From a phage: a stretch of DNA of 38,682 bases. Below are positions 1 to 38,682 of this stretch, piece by piece (positions within the stretch are counted from its first letter, which is position 1; every line of letters starts with the position of its first letter). The stretch lies in the sequence record PQ400058.1, one strand, 5' to 3'. The notes under the pieces are model-generated. The model did not search any database, had not been told where the DNA came from, and saw nothing but the letters and a program-made list of their open reading frames with translations. A program made the position numbers and the translations under genes.

Positions 1-1967
1 TGAATGGTATCTTCCAGCACTTGTTGGCGGAAGCCGAACTCTTTGGACCCGTAAGCCAGCGTCATGACTGAACGCTTAGTCACGCTGCGAGTAACACCAT
101 AAGCCAGCCACTGACCAGCCAGCGTCTTGGTGCCCAGTTTGACTTTCTCAGAGATTTCACCAGTGTTCTCATCGGTCACGGTAACTACTTCGTTGTCGGT
201 CCCGTTGATTACATCTTCTTGCAGAATCACGTTGACTTTCTTAGCGACAATCCCGTAGATGTCCTGAACTGTTTCGCTAGGCAGCAGGTTAACAGCGCGA
301 CCACCTATCTCATCAAGGAGCATCGCGGAGAAGTGTTGAATACCAGAGCAAGACCCATCGAACGCCAGCGGAAGAGAGCAGTTGTAGCTTAAGCCGTGGT
401 GCTGTACCCCAGCGTACTCAAAGCAGAACGCAAGGAAGCAGAACGGAGAATCTTGCTCAGCCCACCAAGTGTTCTCCAGTGGAGACTTAGCGCAAGCCAT
501 GATGTTCTCGTGGTTGTCCTCAATGAACTTTATGCGCTCAGGGAACGGAACCTTATCGACACCCGCACAGTTTGCACCGTGGATTTTCAGCCAGTAGTAA
601 CCTTCCTTGCCGATTGGTTTACCTTTCGCCAGAGTCAGCAGGCCCTTGGTCATATCGTTACCTTGCGGGTTGAACATTGACACAGCGTAAACACGACCGC
701 GCCAGTCCATGTTGTAAGGGAACCAGATGGCCTTATGGTTAGCGAACTTATTGGCTTGCTCAAGCATGAACTCAAGGCTGATACGGCGAGACTTGCGAGC
801 CTTGTCCTTGCGGTACACAGCGGCAGCGGCACGTTTCCATGCGGTGAGAGCCTCAGGATTCGTGTCGATGTCTTCCGGTTTCATCGGGAGTTCTTCACGC
901 TCAATCGCTGGGATGTCCTCGACCGGGCAGTGCTTCCACTTGGTGATGACGTTGGCGACCGCTAGGACTTTCTTGTTGATTTTCCATGCGGTGTTTTGCG
1001 CAATGTTAATCGCCTTGTACACCTCAGGCATGTAAACGTCTTCGTAGCGCATCAGTGCCTTCTTACTGTGAGTGCGCACCAGCGCCAGAGGACGACGACC
1101 GTTAGCCCAATAGCCGCCACCAGTAATACCAGTCCAAGGCTTAGGAGGAACCACGCAAGGTTGGAACATCGGAGAGATACCAGCCAGCGCACCTGCACGG
1201 GTTGCGATAGCCTCAGCGTATTCCGGTGCGAGTTCGATAGTCTCAGAGTCCTGACCAACTACGCCAGCATTTTGACGATGTAAGCTAACCATTCCGGTTG
1301 ACTCAATGAGCATCTCAATGCAGCGAACACCTACATGAATGGAGTCTTCCTTGTGCCATGAAGACCACGCCTCGCCACCTAGTAGACCCTTAGAGAGCAT
1401 ATCCGCTTCGACAACCTGCATGAATGCTTTCTTGTAGACGTGACCTACTCGCTTGTTGAGTTGTTCCTCAACGTTTTTCTTGAAGTGCTTAGCTTCAAGG
1501 TCACGGATTCGACCAAAGCGCGCCTCGTCCTCAATAGCTCGACCGATTGCACTTGCTACAGCCTGAACGGTTGTATTGTCTACGCTCGTGAGGCAAGCCA
1601 GAGTGGTCTTAATGGTGATGTACGCTACAGCTTCCGGCTTGATTTCTTGCAGGAACTGGAAGGCTGTCGGGCGTTTGCCGCGCTTAGCTTTCACTTCCTC
1701 GAACCAATCGTTGATGCGTGCAATCATCTTAGGGAGCAGGGTAGTAATGAGAGGCTTAGCGGCAGCGTTATCCGCAACCTCACCAGCTTTAAGTTGACGC
1801 TCAAACATCTTGCGGAAGCGTGCTTCGCCCATCTCGTAAGACTCATGCTCAAGGGCCAACTGTTCGCGAGCTAAACGCTCACCGTAATGGTCAGCCAGAG
1901 TATTGAACGGAATAGCAGCCAGTTCGATGTCAGAGAAGTCGTTCTTAGCGATGTTAATCGTGTTCAT
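1..1967 (-). CDS. 1: T7-type single-subunit RNA polymerase (gene 1), N-terminal ~656 codons; truncated by window start, continues at window end
   Basis: ATG at 1967 with GAGG RBS; own translation MNTINIAKNDFSDIELAAIPFNTLADHYGERLAREQ...; frame open to position 1 (...SVMTLAYGSKEFGFRQQVLEDTIQ). Not in ORF track because no stop in window. Confidence 0.93.
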   Translation of the reverse strand, partial: MNTINIAKNDFSDIELAAIPFNTLADHYGERLAREQLALEHESYEMGEARFRKMFERQLKAGEVADNAAAKPLITTLLPKMIARINDWFEEVKAKRGKRPTAFQFLQEIKPEAVAYITIKTTLACLTSVDNTTVQAVASAIGRAIEDEARFGRIRDLEAKHFKKNVEEQLNKRVGHVYKKAFMQVVEADMLSKGLLGGEAWSSWHKEDSIHVGVRCIEMLIESTGMVSLHRQNAGVVGQDSETIELAPEYAEAIATRAGALAGISPMFQPCVVPPKPWTGITGGGYWANGRRPLALVRTHSKKALMRYEDVYMPEVYKAINIAQNTAWKINKKVLAVANVITKWKHCPVEDIPAIEREELPMKPEDIDTNPEALTAWKRAAAAVYRKDKARKSRRISLEFMLEQANKFANHKAIWFPYNMDWRGRVYAVSMFNPQGNDMTKGLLTLAKGKPIGKEGYYWLKIHGANCAGVDKVPFPERIKFIEDNHENIMACAKSPLENTWWAEQDSPFCFLAFCFEYAGVQHHGLSYNCSLPLAFDGSCSGIQHFSAMLLDEIGGRAVNLLPSETVQDIYGIVAKKVNVILQEDVINGTDNEVVTVTDENTGEISEKVKLGTKTLAGQWLAYGVTRSVTKRSVMTLAYGSKEFGFRQQVLEDTI

Positions 1968-2037
1968 TTAGTGCCTCTTCCGGTTAGTAAATCGTACCTA
2001 TTCAGGCCACCCGCAGATGACCTGTAAGATAAGACTA

Positions 2038-3117
2038 TCAGCCCATTAGCATTGCGTCAAGTTTCTTGTCAATGTTAAGCGGAAGACCGTTAGCGATAGC
2101 CATCCGGTCAGCTTGGAACCAGTGCGCTGCGATTCGTTCCTCAAGCGCCTTAAAGTCCTTAGCTAACATGTTAACCCAGAGCATAGCGTTATCGGTCCTT
2201 CCTAGTACATCTACAGCTACCTCATGGTTACGTCGCTCTTGACGTTCAGCCATTCGCCACGCAGCAACCATTCGCTTGTGCTTCGCTTGGTGTGCTTTAC
2301 GCGCCTTGCGGTTACGGCGCTTTACTTTGCGTGCCTCCAATCGGCCAACATGGCGTACTTTACGGTCCTTAGCGCGGTCTATTGCCTTCTGGCGTGCGGC
2401 TTCCTCGACTTCCTTGATGAGTTCCTCAGGGTCAATGCTGAACGAGCCGCCATCTTTCTTCTGCGAGAATGACACGGGGTCGGTAATGAATGGCGTACCA
2501 TCGTCACTGAACATGATGTTACCGCTGTGCATGTCGAATGAAGCGATGCCCTCAAAGAACTTGCGGATTAGCTTGCAAGTCTCGACGAACTCGCCATCCC
2601 ATCCAGTTAACATATCGTGCGCATCTGATTTGCAGTCAATGATGTCGCTTGCAATCTCAGCGTATTTATAGTGCTCATCGTTATCGTAACGCTCGCAATC
2701 ATTCAGCGCATCGAGAACAACCGTGTAGCACCCAGCGTGACGCTGTACATCGTAGACGTTAGGGATACCAGCACGGCCCTGATACATGCGGCAGAATGCG
2801 GTATACGCAGCGCCTGAGTCCTCTTTCTTAAAGCCCACCTTAATCACTCTGTTGGGCAGCAGTGGATGACTATAAGCAGCCGAGAAGTGACCATTGCCAA
2901 GCATCTTGAAACCAGCGTCAGCAGTGAGACACTTCAAGGTAGTCCACCAATCTTGATGCTCAAGTGCCTGATTCAGTTCGGTTATCTCGCCATCGCATGT
3001 CTCGCTGTTTACCATCTCAACCAGTAAGTCGATAAGCATACTCTGACGCTTGTCAATTTCACAGATTGGCAGCGCTTTGATTGCGTCGATAGCGTTCATG
3101 ATGTCGGTAATGTTCAC
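2038..3117 (-). CDS. 0.7: gp0.7-like serine/threonine protein kinase (host transcription shutoff)
   Basis: Track ORF 2038..3174; likely start is GTG at 3117 ([14 protein letters not shown]...), giving 359 aa as in T7; ATG at 3099 is an alternative. Confidence 0.85.
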
Positions 3118-3136
3118 TTTGTGTGCTCTCCAAAAG

Positions 3137-3289
3137 TTAGATTTTGTTAATCTTGCGGTTGATGCGCAGTTCACGCTTAAGGCGTTCGATTCGCTGTTTC
3201 ATTGCGAAACCATCAGGTGTGCATACAGTTGCCCCGTTGGACGTGTGGATAGGCATAACGTAGTGTTTCATACCATAGTGTTTCAGCAT
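3137..3289 (-). CDS. gp0.6-like small early protein ([50 protein letters not shown])
   Basis: In-frame ATGs at 3289 and 3271, stop TAA 3137-3139; GGGAG about 10 nt upstream of 3289; sits between 0.5 and 0.7 as in T7. Confidence 0.55.
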
Positions 3290-3411
3290 TTGCGCAGTGC
3301 TCCCGTGACGATACAAGCTACCAAGTAAGCGCCTATAGCTACACCCAAAGACTCCCCAAAGGATGCGCCTACAGCTAGACCTAGAGCGGTGAGTAGACCG
3401 ATAGTAAGCAT
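3283..3411 (-). CDS. gp0.5-like small hydrophobic protein ([42 protein letters not shown], 42 aa)
   Basis: ATG at 3411 with GGGAG 8 nt upstream (alternative ATG 3417), stop TGA 3283-3285; below track size cutoff, translated by hand. Confidence 0.6.
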   Translation of the reverse strand: MLTIGLLTALGLAVGASFGESLGVAIGAYLVACIVTGALRKC

Positions 3412-3431
3412 ATTCATTACTCCCGTAAGTA

Positions 3432-3475
3432 AAGTGATAATCATAAAGGCCACTCGCTAGGAGCGACCTTGAGCC
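3432..3475 (-). promoter_or_regulatory. RNase III-type processing site (R0.5-like)
   Basis: Contains the recurrent CTCAAGGTCGCTCCTAGCGAGTGGCCTTTATGAT element (minus-strand reading); position matches T7 R0.5. Confidence 0.5.
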
Positions 3476-3477
3476 TA

Positions 3478-3633
3478 TCACTCAGCAGATTCCAAAGCTA
3501 TTGCCTTGTTGTTTTCGTACAGTTCCTTGAGTTGTACCATTGCGAGCGACCAATTGAAGCCACAGCGCACCATGTCACTATAAAACAGTACAGTTTGAGC
3601 GGTCAGACCGTATTGCGTGGTGTTGTTAGTCAT
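3478..3633 (-). CDS. 0.4: gp0.4 (FtsZ-binding cell division inhibitor in T7), 51 aa
   Basis: Hand translation [51 protein letters not shown]; ATG 3633 overlaps the TAA of 0.3 (TAATG); stop TGA 3478-3480. Confidence 0.8.
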   Translation of the reverse strand: MTNNTTQYGLTAQTVLFYSDMVRCGFNWSLAMVQLKELYENNKAIALESAE

Positions 3634-3983
3634 TACTCTTCATCCTCCTCTTCTGCGACTTCCTCAAGGTACTCGTTCAGTAAGTCCTCAGCGTCTTCCC
3701 AGAGGTCAATCGTGAGTTGCTCATAGATGCGAGCTTGCAGGATGCGAATCACGTCCTTGGTGTCCGGCATAAGACCAGAGTCCTCGAACTCAAGATCAAT
3801 GCCCTCGCTTGCCATTACGCTGAAAATGTCGCTGTAGTAGTGCGGAACGGCGCTATCGGCAGCCATGTGAACAGCATCATGCAGGTCATCAGTGTCGCGG
3901 ATGTCATCATAACGGATGTTTTCTTTCAGCATTTCGTAAGCGTGGTCGAAAACGTTGTTGTAAGTCATGTTAGACATAGCCAT
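3633..3983 (-). CDS. ocr: Ocr (gp0.3) DNA-mimic anti-restriction protein
   Basis: Track ORF 116 aa [36 protein letters not shown]...EEDEE, acidic C-terminus; first gene after the early promoters. Confidence 0.95.
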
Positions 3984-8133: not shown

Positions 8134-8337
8134 TCACTCCTTATTGGCTTTCTTCCAGTCAATCATCTTATCGACTACCTTGGCACCAATCTGAACCACT
8201 GTGTAGGCGATAGCGGCAATATAGAACCACTCATTAAGACTCAGCCCGAAGAAAAGCCTCGCAGCACCATCAGCCACACCTGTTCCAACAATAGGTGCAG
8301 CCTTGACTAACTCGTTGTTAAAATCCAAAGACAGCAT
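8134..8337 (-). CDS. 17.5: Holin (gp17.5)
   Basis: Track ORF 67 aa MLSLDFNNELVKAAPIVGTGVADGAARLFFGLSLNEWFYIAAIAYTVVQIGAKVV... with hydrophobic segments. Confidence 0.88.
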   Translation of the reverse strand: MLSLDFNNELVKAAPIVGTGVADGAARLFFGLSLNEWFYIAAIAYTVVQIGAKVVDKMIDWKKANKE

Positions 8338-8390
8338 GTATCCTCCTTATAAGGTCCATCCGTGGACTGAATGGCTTTCCTAGGTTGTAA

Positions 8391-8915
8391 TTATTCCTCA
8401 GGCTTCTCAGGCCAGTCATAGAAAGGCAGTACACTCAGGTCTACTTTGTATACAGCAAGACGGTAAATTCGCCACGCGTTTAGGAGACCTTCTAATCCAT
8501 CCTCCCCAAGTGCCATGAAGTCAGCATACTGCTCAATCTTCTTGGAGGCCATAGAGACTAGACTAGCCTTCTGGTTCTCAAAGTATCGCGGATACCAAGT
8601 TAGCTTCTCACCATCCCACCACCACTGCATCATATTGTAACGAGAGTATTCAGCTGGGATTTCCTCAAGTTCAACAACACCAGCAGAACCCTGAACGGCT
8701 AACTCCTGAACATCCTGTTCACACTGAATTACCGAACCGTCTTTGGCATAGACAAGTTTCCATGTATCCTCACGGAATGTCTTACGTAGTTCATACCAGT
8801 CATTCCCATTCTCGTCCTTTGAGAAGCCAACTCCGTGGTCCAGAAGGTCTGCATTCTCTTTGGTGCGCTCTGGAATATAGTTTACGAAGTTCTTATAGTG
8901 GCGTAAAGTCTTCAT
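8391..8915 (-). CDS. Tail fibre assembly (Tfa-like) chaperone, 174 aa; not present in T7
   Basis: ATG 8915 with GGGGGAGGG RBS 16 nt after the gp17 stop; C-terminus ...LLNAWRIYRLAVYKVDLSVLPFYDWPEKPEE resembles the lambda Tfa C-terminus (...[29 protein letters not shown]) as recalled. Confidence 0.7.
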   Translation of the reverse strand: MKTLRHYKNFVNYIPERTKENADLLDHGVGFSKDENGNDWYELRKTFREDTWKLVYAKDGSVIQCEQDVQELAVQGSAGVVELEEIPAEYSRYNMMQWWWDGEKLTWYPRYFENQKASLVSMASKKIEQYADFMALGEDGLEGLLNAWRIYRLAVYKVDLSVLPFYDWPEKPEE

Positions 8916-8931
8916 GTTGTACCCTCCCCCT

Positions 8932-10608
8932 TTAGTAAATATTAAAGCGTTGACCATCGTTGCGTACATACTGCATAACACGCCACTGGCAACCATCTAC
9001 CGCACCATCAGCGTTACCGTTTGTGATTCCTGTGATCACCTTACCGCCACCATCTTCTATGCCGTAAGCATTCCACAGTTGCGACCAGTTAACTCCACCC
9101 ATCGCAATGTGGTTAACGGTATTTGCAACAAGCCAGCCAGCTAGATGACCATGACCACCCCATACAGAGCCTGCAATGTTTCCGTCAGTGGACATTGCGG
9201 CACCACCTGCCTTAATCGTAGTTGGGAATTGAACCTCGCCATTTGGGTTTAGCCAAATGTCATAAGATGTCGCTTGAGATGCTTCCGGTTTCCACCGGAT
9301 TAGGCCGTTGCCGTTCGTAGAACCACCTCGAACCCATCCAATTTCTAACCCTGCATCGTAGAAACTCCAACGAGTGTTACAGACCCATCCACCTTGGGTC
9401 AAATCACCCGGACCATATGCCACCGTCTTAACGGCAGTATTGGCCTGATTAGTAACACCTAGCGGTTTGTTGAATCCTTCTACCTGCAAACCATTGTAGC
9501 AATGCATGAAGTCCCCGAAGTGCATCTCCCACGTAGCCGAATCATTAGCTTTACTTTGAACCTGAAATGGAACATGCCAGTCCCCTCTATGTGGGTGCTT
9601 AATGGCCCAAAACGTATTTGATACATATTGTCCCTCAGCAGGGTTATACTCATGTACCATCTGCCCCATAGAGCCAGCTTCGGCAGTTGCCCTCAGGGTT
9701 GAAGCACGATTAGCAATAAGTTCACCGTTAAACTTAGCAGTAGCCGCCCACGAAACAACGTGGTCTTGGCTTACTTCCTCAATGGCACCTGCAAGTGCAT
9801 TCCAGTTACCAAGTTTGTCTGCCTCCAACTTAGCGCGGTCTGCTTGCTGTTCTGCCGAATGGGCAGAGTTAGCGGATGCCGTGGCATAGTTCTCAGCGTT
9901 TACCTCAGATTGATGCGCAGCAGTAGCAGAGTTACCAGCAGATGTAGCGTATTGACCAGCCGTATTCTTGAACTGCTCGGCTTCGTCTCTGAAACCCTTG
10001 GTCTCATCACGCCACTGCTTCGTATTCGTAGCGTTAGTGCTGGACTCGTTCTTAAAGCCCTCCGCTTGATTTCTGAAAGTCTCAGCCTCATTGCGGAACT
10101 GTAGGGCCTCATTACGCGCCTGCCATGAGTTCTGGTTCATGGTCTTAAGTTGACCAAACGGAACAGCGTCACGGTCATCCACGGCGTTCGCTAGGTTCAC
10201 AATTCGACGACCACGGGCATCCAAGTGACCATCATTATTGACACCGATAGTATCCGCAGTGAGGTCACGGGCCTCTTCTGCTACGTGCATCGTTTGAATC
10301 TGAGCGACGTTAAGGTCATATGCACGGAGGATTGAACCATCCGTAAAGTCAACCAATCGGTCTGTCGTGGAGGTTACTCGACGTAACTCAATGGTCGTGT
10401 AGCCATCAGCTGTACCCCAAGCCTTGGTCAGTGAGATGGTAGTGCGAGTAGCAAAGCGGTAGTCTGTATTAATAGTAAGGACCTTTCGGTCTACGCCAAT
10501 AAGGGTTACTACTACGAACTTACGGGCTAGATACTCAAACGGGATATTAAAATCACGAGTGGAGCCGTCTAACTGGTAAGTCAAAACGGTTTTAATTACG
10601 TTAGCCAT
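8932..10608 (-). CDS. 17: Tail fibre protein gp17, 558 aa: T7-like N-terminal attachment and coiled-coil region, non-T7 distal receptor-binding region
   Basis: Track ORF MANVIKTVLTYQLDGSTRDFNIPFEYLARKF...; matches recalled T7 gp17 to about residue 265 then diverges (…HPHRGDWH…GGHGHLAGW…QRFNIY). Confidence 0.9.
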   Translation of the reverse strand: MANVIKTVLTYQLDGSTRDFNIPFEYLARKFVVVTLIGVDRKVLTINTDYRFATRTTISLTKAWGTADGYTTIELRRVTSTTDRLVDFTDGSILRAYDLNVAQIQTMHVAEEARDLTADTIGVNNDGHLDARGRRIVNLANAVDDRDAVPFGQLKTMNQNSWQARNEALQFRNEAETFRNQAEGFKNESSTNATNTKQWRDETKGFRDEAEQFKNTAGQYATSAGNSATAAHQSEVNAENYATASANSAHSAEQQADRAKLEADKLGNWNALAGAIEEVSQDHVVSWAATAKFNGELIANRASTLRATAEAGSMGQMVHEYNPAEGQYVSNTFWAIKHPHRGDWHVPFQVQSKANDSATWEMHFGDFMHCYNGLQVEGFNKPLGVTNQANTAVKTVAYGPGDLTQGGWVCNTRWSFYDAGLEIGWVRGGSTNGNGLIRWKPEASQATSYDIWLNPNGEVQFPTTIKAGGAAMSTDGNIAGSVWGGHGHLAGWLVANTVNHIAMGGVNWSQLWNAYGIEDGGGKVITGITNGNADGAVDGCQWRVMQYVRNDGQRFNIY

Positions 10609-10660: not shown

Positions 10661-10683
10661 TCTCCCTATAGTGAGTCGTATTA
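10661..10683 (-). promoter_or_regulatory. T7 RNAP promoter phi17
   Basis: Minus strand TAATACGACTCACTATAGGGAGA; its TAA is the stop codon of gene 16. Confidence 0.9.
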
Positions 10684-38016: not shown

Positions 38017-38682
38017 TTACGCGAACGCGAAGTCTGACTTAAGGATGTCTTGGAGATTCAAGTTACCTTTAGCCGGAAGTGCTGGCATTTTGTCCAATTG
38101 AGACTCATGCAACTGGTCAGCGAACTGGTCATAGAAGTCAGCAAGTACATCACAAGACTCATAGGTGTCCACCATCGTTTCACGCACAGCTTTGAACAGG
38201 TTGGCAGCGTCAGCCGGAATGGTCCCGAAGGAGTCGTGAATCAGTGCAAACGATTCGATTCCATACTTCTCGTGTGCCCACACTACAGTCTTACGCAGAT
38301 GGCTACCGTCTTGGCTGTGTACAAAGTTAGGAGCGATGCCAGACTCCTGCTTGTGAGCGTCAATCTCGCTATCTTTGTTGGTGTTAATGGTCGGCTGTAA
38401 GCGGAACTGACCAAGGAACATCAGGTTCAAGCGAGTCTGAATTGGCTTCTTGTATTCCTGCCACACTGGGAACCCATCAGGAGTTACCCAATGCACAGCG
38501 CAACGCTTGCGAAGAATCTCGCCAGTCTTCTTATCTTTGACCTCAGCAGCCAGCAGCTTAGCGGCAGACTTGAGCCAGTTCATAGCCTCTACAGCGGCTA
38601 CTACAGTCACGCTCACAGCTTCCCAAATCAGTTTCGCCATGTAACCAGCAGCCTGATTCGGTTGAGTGAACATAATACCCTT
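38017..38682 (-). CDS. 1: T7-type RNA polymerase (gene 1), C-terminal 221 codons; 5' part runs off window end and resumes at window start
   Basis: Frame open from 38682 (KGIMFTQPNQAAGYMAKLIWE...) to stop TAA 38017-38019; ends ...LQDILKSDFAFA. Confidence 0.93.
   Translation of the reverse strand, partial: KGIMFTQPNQAAGYMAKLIWEAVSVTVVAAVEAMNWLKSAAKLLAAEVKDKKTGEILRKRCAVHWVTPDGFPVWQEYKKPIQTRLNLMFLGQFRLQPTINTNKDSEIDAHKQESGIAPNFVHSQDGSHLRKTVVWAHEKYGIESFALIHDSFGTIPADAANLFKAVRETMVDTYESCDVLADFYDQFADQLHESQLDKMPALPAKGNLNLQDILKSDFAFA

Follow-up and report, generated by a model that had tools for sequence, protein, structure and literature searches.

The tail fibre protein (gp17) encoded in the phage DNA analysed here (PQ400058.1; the whole stretch of 38,682 nucleotides is called the window) is very probably a natural chimera, in which a T7-type N-terminal domain and shaft carry a swapped distal half that ends in a Mu-type knob, comes with a separately encoded tail fibre assembly protein (Tfa) and would set the receptor. 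The parts of the fibre are homologous to different phage fibres, the mosaic boundaries can be placed on the DNA, and the gene order differs from that of T7 by the insertion of the tfa gene behind gene 17. The original prediction, made from the sequence alone, had read the locus as a T7 chassis with an exchanged host-range module, a reading that is supported by a tip that is neither of T7 nor of T3 type, the accompanying Tfa gene, a perfect phi17 promoter and a Teseptimavirus backbone of about 92% identity. What stands is the swap itself; the exchanged part is not one unit, as the mid domain, the neck and the knob with Tfa are each distributed differently among phages.

Locus and genome setting

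Gene 17 has the same position as in T7 and T3, between gene 16 and the holin gene 17.5 and behind the phi17 promoter, which is annotated at the same place in T7. The genes follow each other on the minus strand in the order gene 16, gene 17, tfa, holin 17.5 and small terminase subunit, with the following features at the locus:

10661..10683, minus strand: T7 class III promoter phi17, TAATACGACTCACTATAGGGAGA, a perfect match read directly in the sequence
8932..10608, minus strand: gene 17, encoding the tail fibre gp17, an open reading frame of 558 aa
8916..8931, minus strand: 16-nt spacer with a Shine-Dalgarno sequence, AGGGGGAGGG, from the gp17 stop to the tfa ATG, read directly
8391..8915, minus strand: tfa, encoding a 174-aa tail fibre assembly protein that starts MKTLRHY (Pfam PF02413 Caudo_TAP)
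8338..8390, minus strand: downstream junction, with T7 homology from 8381, about 10 nt past the tfa stop and upstream of holin 17.5
8134..8337, minus strand: holin gene 17.5 (phrog_920, E 7e-31)

The backbone is about 92-93% identical to the Teseptimavirus phages Bas104, Yanou and Bas102. As a whole, the window is a near-complete T7-like genome that is circularly permuted and cut within gene 1 (RNA polymerase), two pieces of which run off its ends: the N-terminal 655 aa at 1..1968 and the C-terminal 221 aa at 38017..38682, both on the minus strand. Wrapping the window into a circle does not restore the gene 1 reading frame because about seven codons are missing between the ends; we take these to correspond to QPAIDSG in T7. 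The left end of the window holds genes for a gene 0.7-type serine/threonine kinase (2038..3174, minus strand; phrog_2828, E 3e-169) and an Ocr-like anti-restriction protein (3633..3983, minus strand; phrog_2568, E 6e-57), consistent with the permuted genome order.

The T7-type part of gp17 and the two junctions

Three features make up the proximal part of the fibre and its end:

10162..10608, minus strand: gp17 aa 1-149, tail-attachment domain (Pfam PF03906 Phage_T7_tail, E 2.9e-72)
9808..10161, minus strand: gp17 aa 150-267, T7-type coiled-coil proximal shaft (alignment)
9778..9825, minus strand: gp17 aa 262-277, upstream crossover zone, EADKLGNWNALAGAIE (ends of blastn matches and alignments)

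The match to PF03906 spans gp17 aa 1-162 with 241.9 bits against a cutoff of 25.2, and the N-terminal domain (aa 1-149) is 98% identical to both T7 and T3. Over aa 150-277, identity is 91% with T7 and 88% with T3, and only 32-33% with Yanou and Bas103. BLASTP against T7 gp17 gave 90.6% identity across aa 1-297, beyond which the sole match pairs aa 468-526 with T7 435-485 at 36% identity and corresponds to the neck motif described below. At the DNA level, blastn homology to T7, T3 and Escherichia phage 64795_ec1 ends at 9779 (aa 277) and is back at 8381, 8371 and 8365, respectively, just beyond tfa, and homology to Yanou and Bas103 starts at 9825. In Studiervirinae fibres, the coiled coil ends in a conserved motif, EADKLGNxNxLAGAI, and this is where the crossover lies.

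Between the two junctions, 1.4 kb (8382-9778) stands in place of about 0.85 kb of T7. The GC content is flat over the swapped segment (0.45-0.50), so base composition does not mark it as foreign. In DNA, the swapped part is 84-88% identical to the closest donors sampled, less than the 92% of the backbone. The junction segment immediately after the crossover (aa 278-297) is 85% identical to that of Bas67 and 58-63% identical to those of Yanou and Bas103. At the other end, the C-termini of T7 gp17 (...IMVENE) and T3 gp17 (...AVEDV) do not align with the end of gp17 in the window.

These comparisons bear out the prediction that the distal half is not T7-like, as BLASTP and DNA homology break off at aa 277-297 and only the neck matches T7 thereafter; the distal half gave no alignment with an ordinary T7 or T3 tip, and such an alignment was what the prediction had named as speaking against it. 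Its boundary at 9810 (aa 267), drawn from a T7 match to about aa 265, lies within about 10 codons of the junction, because T7 and T3 DNA homology ends at 9779 (aa 277). All of the strings it quoted are present, namely AEQQADRAKLEADKLG (aa 252-267), HPHRGDWH (aa 338), GGHGHLAGW (aa 484) and the C-terminal QRFNIY, and the T7 end that it cited, ...IMVENE, agrees with the alignment.

In the record of 64795_ec1, gene 17 (1581..3453) is annotated as two overlapping coding sequences named ‘tail fibers protein’ (290 aa and 341 aa), which points to a frameshift or an error in the sequencing of this record. The distal part of this gene is not related to the one in the window.

Composition of the distal half

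Past the junction follow the mid domain, the neck and the C-terminal knob of gp17, with two histidine-containing strings:

9199..9777, minus strand: gp17 aa 278-470, beta-rich mid domain that is not of T7 type (segment comparison)
9574..9597, minus strand: HPHRGDWH, aa 338-345, inside the mid domain
9127..9198, minus strand: gp17 aa 471-494, neck motif, (S)TDGNIAGSVWGG-HG-HLAGWLVA (alignment)
9145..9159, minus strand: GGHGH, part of GGHGHLAGW at aa 484, inside the neck
8932..9126, minus strand: gp17 aa 495-558 (64 aa) and the stop codon, Mu S'-type C-terminal knob

Over aa 298-455, the mid domain is 91% identical to a metagenome protein (P0001), 78% to Bas67, 77% to Yanou and 74% to Bas103, and segment comparison finds it absent from T7, T3, PGX1, ESh2, Leclercia phage 10164-302 and Kvp1. 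It matches no Pfam family, an NCBIfam search gave no meaningful match for gp17 or Tfa, and the exact sequences of both proteins were not found in a collection of 15 billion proteins. When 1.84 billion representative proteins were scanned exhaustively with HMMER, only 34 relatives emerged; the word-indexed protein search gave only two matches with a single-sequence query, so that a profile query was required. Relatives matching most of the mid domain (P0003, P0006 and P0010) all have a T7-type N-terminus, and in two non-T7 fibres (P0008 and P0031) the match is confined to the neck, the knob and the final part of the mid domain. Structure prediction used an AlphaFold2 monomer model from an 89-sequence alignment, as the single-sequence run on the distal half (mean pLDDT 34) was unusable. 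It is against the chimeric reading that only a monomer was modelled and that the mid domain in it has low confidence (pLDDT 40-68).

In contrast to the mid domain, the neck is widespread. Its consensus is DGNIxGSxWGGxLxxWL, with DGNIxGxxWGGxLxxW nearly invariant in 89 homologues, and the motif, which lies within the segment aa 456-494, occurs in every fibre examined, including T7, PsP3 H (P2-like), Mu and about 90 prophage fibres. When the profile was compared with T7 gp17 (4A0T), the match was confined to the neck (chain residues 102-151, E 2e-6). The neck also serves as a recombination joint.

The string HPHRG(D/E)WH is conserved in the window, P0001, Bas67, Yanou and Bas103, with RGEWH in Bas67; it holds an HxH string and, in all but Bas67, an RGD string as well.

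The knob is of the phage Mu type. It matches the Mu fibre (8JU3) with an E-value of 7.1e-5 as a single sequence and 8.8e-21 as a family profile; it is confidently modelled from the 89-sequence alignment (pLDDT 75-94), and by fold comparison it resembles the solved Mu fibre tip (PDB 8JU3/5YVQ). Its nearest relatives among the reference fibres are Mu S', the G(-) form (41.5% over 53 aa), and PsP3 H (35% over 109 aa). The Mu G(+) protein S gave no significant match to the knob, and knob and Tfa are nearer to the G(-) pair S'/U' than to the G(+) pair S/U. After the neck, homology to the T7/T3-type tip (gp17 465-553, PDB 4A0T) was not found, the BLASTP match stopping at T7 residue 485. The knob is 79-86% identical across all six Tfa-bearing T7-like fibres compared and, by segment comparison, absent from Bas67 and T7. 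In the profile search, the neck and knob were the only parts with a broad distribution among fibres of prophages and myoviruses, and many of these fibres came from Salmonella. A likeness to foreign fibres can be upheld for the last 100 or so residues and for Tfa, which resemble Mu and PsP3 fibres; it does not extend to the full mid domain, which on sequence comparison appears confined to T7-like fibres (Yanou, Bas103, Bas67 and one metagenome scaffold).

The downstream tfa gene

That the gene behind gene 17 is Tfa-like, as predicted, was confirmed with Pfam (PF02413 Caudo_TAP, 38.7 bits with a cutoff of 22.1) and with phrog_136 (7e-39). The protein aligns over its full length (aa 5-173) with the Mu chaperone TfaMu (5YVQ_B, E 3.7e-11) and also matches Mu U' (E 6e-17), Mu U (E 1e-13), P2 G (E 1e-12) and lambda Tfa (E 3e-8). 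It is 81-97% identical among the Tfa-bearing T7-like phages compared. T7 and T3 have no tfa counterpart, and T7 has no gene between 17 and 17.5; T7 needs no Tfa, and its own tip folds without a helper.

A consensus scan showed no promoter or terminator within the 16-nt spacer between gp17 and tfa, and the counts from sigma-70 promoter and terminator scans were not above those in shuffled sequence. The spacer holds a strong Shine-Dalgarno sequence, and tfa is probably co-transcribed with gene 17 from the phi17 promoter. In Tfa proteins, the N-terminal domain binds the fibre and a conserved helical domain at the C-terminus promotes trimerisation (PMC9608196). If the solved Mu fibre-Tfa complex is a guide, the N-terminal domain of Tfa would bind the gp17 knob, and its C-terminal helices would bring the three gp17 C-termini into register, such that the trimer folds from the tip backwards. 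The gp17 fibre would then depend on Tfa as a chaperone, with which it may form a 3:3 complex.

Related fibres and known systems

The arrangement in the window is shared in full or in part by several T7-like phages. Cedecea phage Yanou (ON568193) and Escherichia phage EmilieLinder Bas103 (PQ850602) have the same neck, the same order of gene 16, gene 17, tfa and holin, and related distal parts (mid domain 77% and 74%, knob 84% and 79%, and Tfa 95% and 93% identical, respectively). They differ in a longer and unrelated coiled-coil shaft (32-33% identity) that makes their fibres 598 aa long compared with 558 aa, whereas the window keeps the T7 shaft, and their distal DNA is only 80-84% identical to that of the window. 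A hexameric, Mu-like complex of fibre and Tfa was predicted for Bas103 in the 2025 BASEL paper, in which Bas102-104 require the O16 O-antigen (PMC11990801). A further counterpart is a metagenome scaffold (ERZ28588614 HAYD20-1 scaffold_1323) with the same T7-type shaft, distal half, Tfa and holin, 88% identical in DNA and 91% identical in mid domain protein; it differs in being a fragment with an N-gap within gene 17. The gap splits gene 17 on this scaffold (1..1305), and the gene caller gave only a 243-aa fragment, P0001.

A second group consists of Kluyvera phage Kvp1 (genes 17 and 17.2), Leclercia phage 10164-302, PGX1, ESh2/6/10, LL2, Seera and SPLA4, in which gene 17 and the holin gene flank a gene for a Tfa that is 80-97% identical. 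A direct comparison of four of these phages (Kvp1, Leclercia 10164-302, PGX1 and ESh2) gave 81-85% identity for the knob, but the region from the coiled coil to the neck is unrelated to the mid domain in the window. Gene 17.2 of Kvp1 was labelled Tfa in the 2008 record, and the Kvp1 paper remarks on the divergent region of genes 17-17.2. Altogether, this Tfa is present in about a dozen T7-like phages (15 GenBank records).

Escherichia phage ErnstBeyeler Bas67 resembles the window in the junction (85%), the mid domain (78%) and the neck, yet has another N-terminal domain and shaft, a T7-type tip after the neck (48% identical to T7 435-553) and no Tfa gene. With the same mid domain, a T7-type tip and no Tfa gene in this phage, the presence of Tfa tracks the type of knob. 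The Bas67 fibre (1035..2909) represents a natural swap of tip type, with the exchange placed precisely at the DGNIxGSxWGG neck. As one of the earlier BASEL isolates, Bas67 needs the K-12 LPS core (PMC11990801).

Outside the T7-like phages, Mu S/S' with the chaperones U/U' (PDB 5YVQ, 8JU3), P2 G and PsP3 H/G have a homologous knob and Tfa, with the chaperone gene directly downstream. Identity is only 29-41%, and these are myovirus baseplate fibres with other N-termini and shafts; Mu also has an invertible G segment, which the window lacks. T7 gp17 itself (PDB 4A0T, 7BOZ) shares the N-terminal domain, the coiled coil, the junction motif and the neck motif, and differs in the pyramid and tip domains that are replaced in the window.

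Alternative explanations

If aa 265-558 were an ordinary, diverged T7/T3 distal shaft and tip with an incidental open reading frame downstream, the region past the neck should align to the T7 tip; nothing there does, the last 64 aa match Mu S', and the downstream frame passes the Pfam threshold for Tfa and matches 5YVQ_B. An hhalign comparison of the mid domain with T7/T3 268-447 gave a probability of 57%, a score that stems from the two shared junction motifs deliberately kept at its flanks. We regard this explanation as practically dismissed. Slightly less remote, yet still very improbable, is a needle of the T4 gp37 or lambda Stf type in which His-x-His motifs (HPH and GHGH) bind metal on the trimer axis. 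It would fit the conservation of HPH (aa 338-340) in Yanou, Bas103, Bas67 and P0001 and the weak match of the neck to Pfam gp37_trimer (PF20744, E 0.07), although at 13.6 bits this match is under the cutoff of 21.7 bits. The lambda orf-314 protein, with true GAHAHSFSIGSHGH boxes, gave no BLAST match at E <= 10, and the PDB profile search gave no T4 gp37 chain at E <= 1. Rather than repeated conserved HxH motifs, gp17 has a single HPH, whose conservation does not reach beyond close relatives (HPS takes its place in the distant homologue P0006), and GGHGH results from a 2-residue HG insertion into WGGxLxxWL that the alignments show only in the window. The His-rich, GxHxH-like segments in the original prediction hence did not prove to be a signature of such fibres, and a single axial metal site at HPH (His338/His340) is possible.

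The remaining alternatives accept the swap and concern the roles of its parts. The Mu-type knob and Tfa could be a mere portable folding cassette, with receptor specificity residing in the variable mid domain (aa ~278-470); we consider this a genuine, though clearly less probable, possibility. The knob (79-86%) and Tfa (81-97%) are kept across phages of Kluyvera, Leclercia, Cedecea, Serratia, Salmonella, Shigella and E. coli while the region upstream of the neck is wholly different, and because of this conservation across seven host genera the knob is hard to reconcile with a host-specific determinant. In addition, this mid domain functions with tips of either kind, the T7 type in Bas67 and the Mu type in the window, Yanou and Bas103. 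On the other hand, binding is known to occur through the C-terminal fibre domain in T7, T3 and Mu (PDB 4A0T, 5YVQ), and the 14-21% variation of the knob could sit in surface loops. Bas67 and Bas103 use different surface structures, K-12 LPS core and O16 O-antigen, with mid domains about 75% alike, and the type of tip is the clearest difference between them (PMC11990801). With similar reserve, we suggest that the neck may be a universal splice point at which T7-like fibres switch between a self-folding T7-type tip, as in Bas67, and the Mu-type knob with Tfa, the latter pair acting as a host-independent folding cassette and the mid domain carrying specificity. If true, this class of fibre would have its host-range determinant upstream of the tip, unlike T7, T3 and Mu. 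Rather unlikely is the idea that Tfa stays on the mature fibre tip as an adhesin cap that aids adsorption, instead of acting as a transient chaperone. Mu Tfa was crystallised in complex with the fibre tip (5YVQ), and a paper on Alteromonas phages reports ‘transient chaperone caps’ on their fibres (PMC10579305); yet Tfa is near-invariant (91-97%) among phages with differing hosts.

We thus favor the chimera with a swapped distal half that sets the receptor, for which the co-occurrence of knob and Tfa at 79-97% identity in the T7-like phages compared is further evidence. The replacement is itself a mosaic of a beta-rich mid domain, a widespread neck, a small Mu S'-type knob and a separate Mu U/U'-type Tfa, and the new distal half would determine which surface structure is bound, most likely an LPS or O-antigen structure.

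Significance

The architecture is already known, as Kvp1 was annotated in 2008 and the Bas103 complex was modelled in 2025, so the finding is ordinary for the field and reveals no new kind of system. New is only the combination of a T7 shaft with a mid domain of the Yanou/Bas67 type, and one metagenome scaffold already has the same. The locus provides a natural example of the sites at which T7-type fibres are cut and rejoined, which lie beyond the coiled coil, at the neck and behind tfa. This is useful for engineering the host range of T7, where a graft of the distal half must bring tfa along. For the phage itself, the locus most likely decides which bacteria it can infect.
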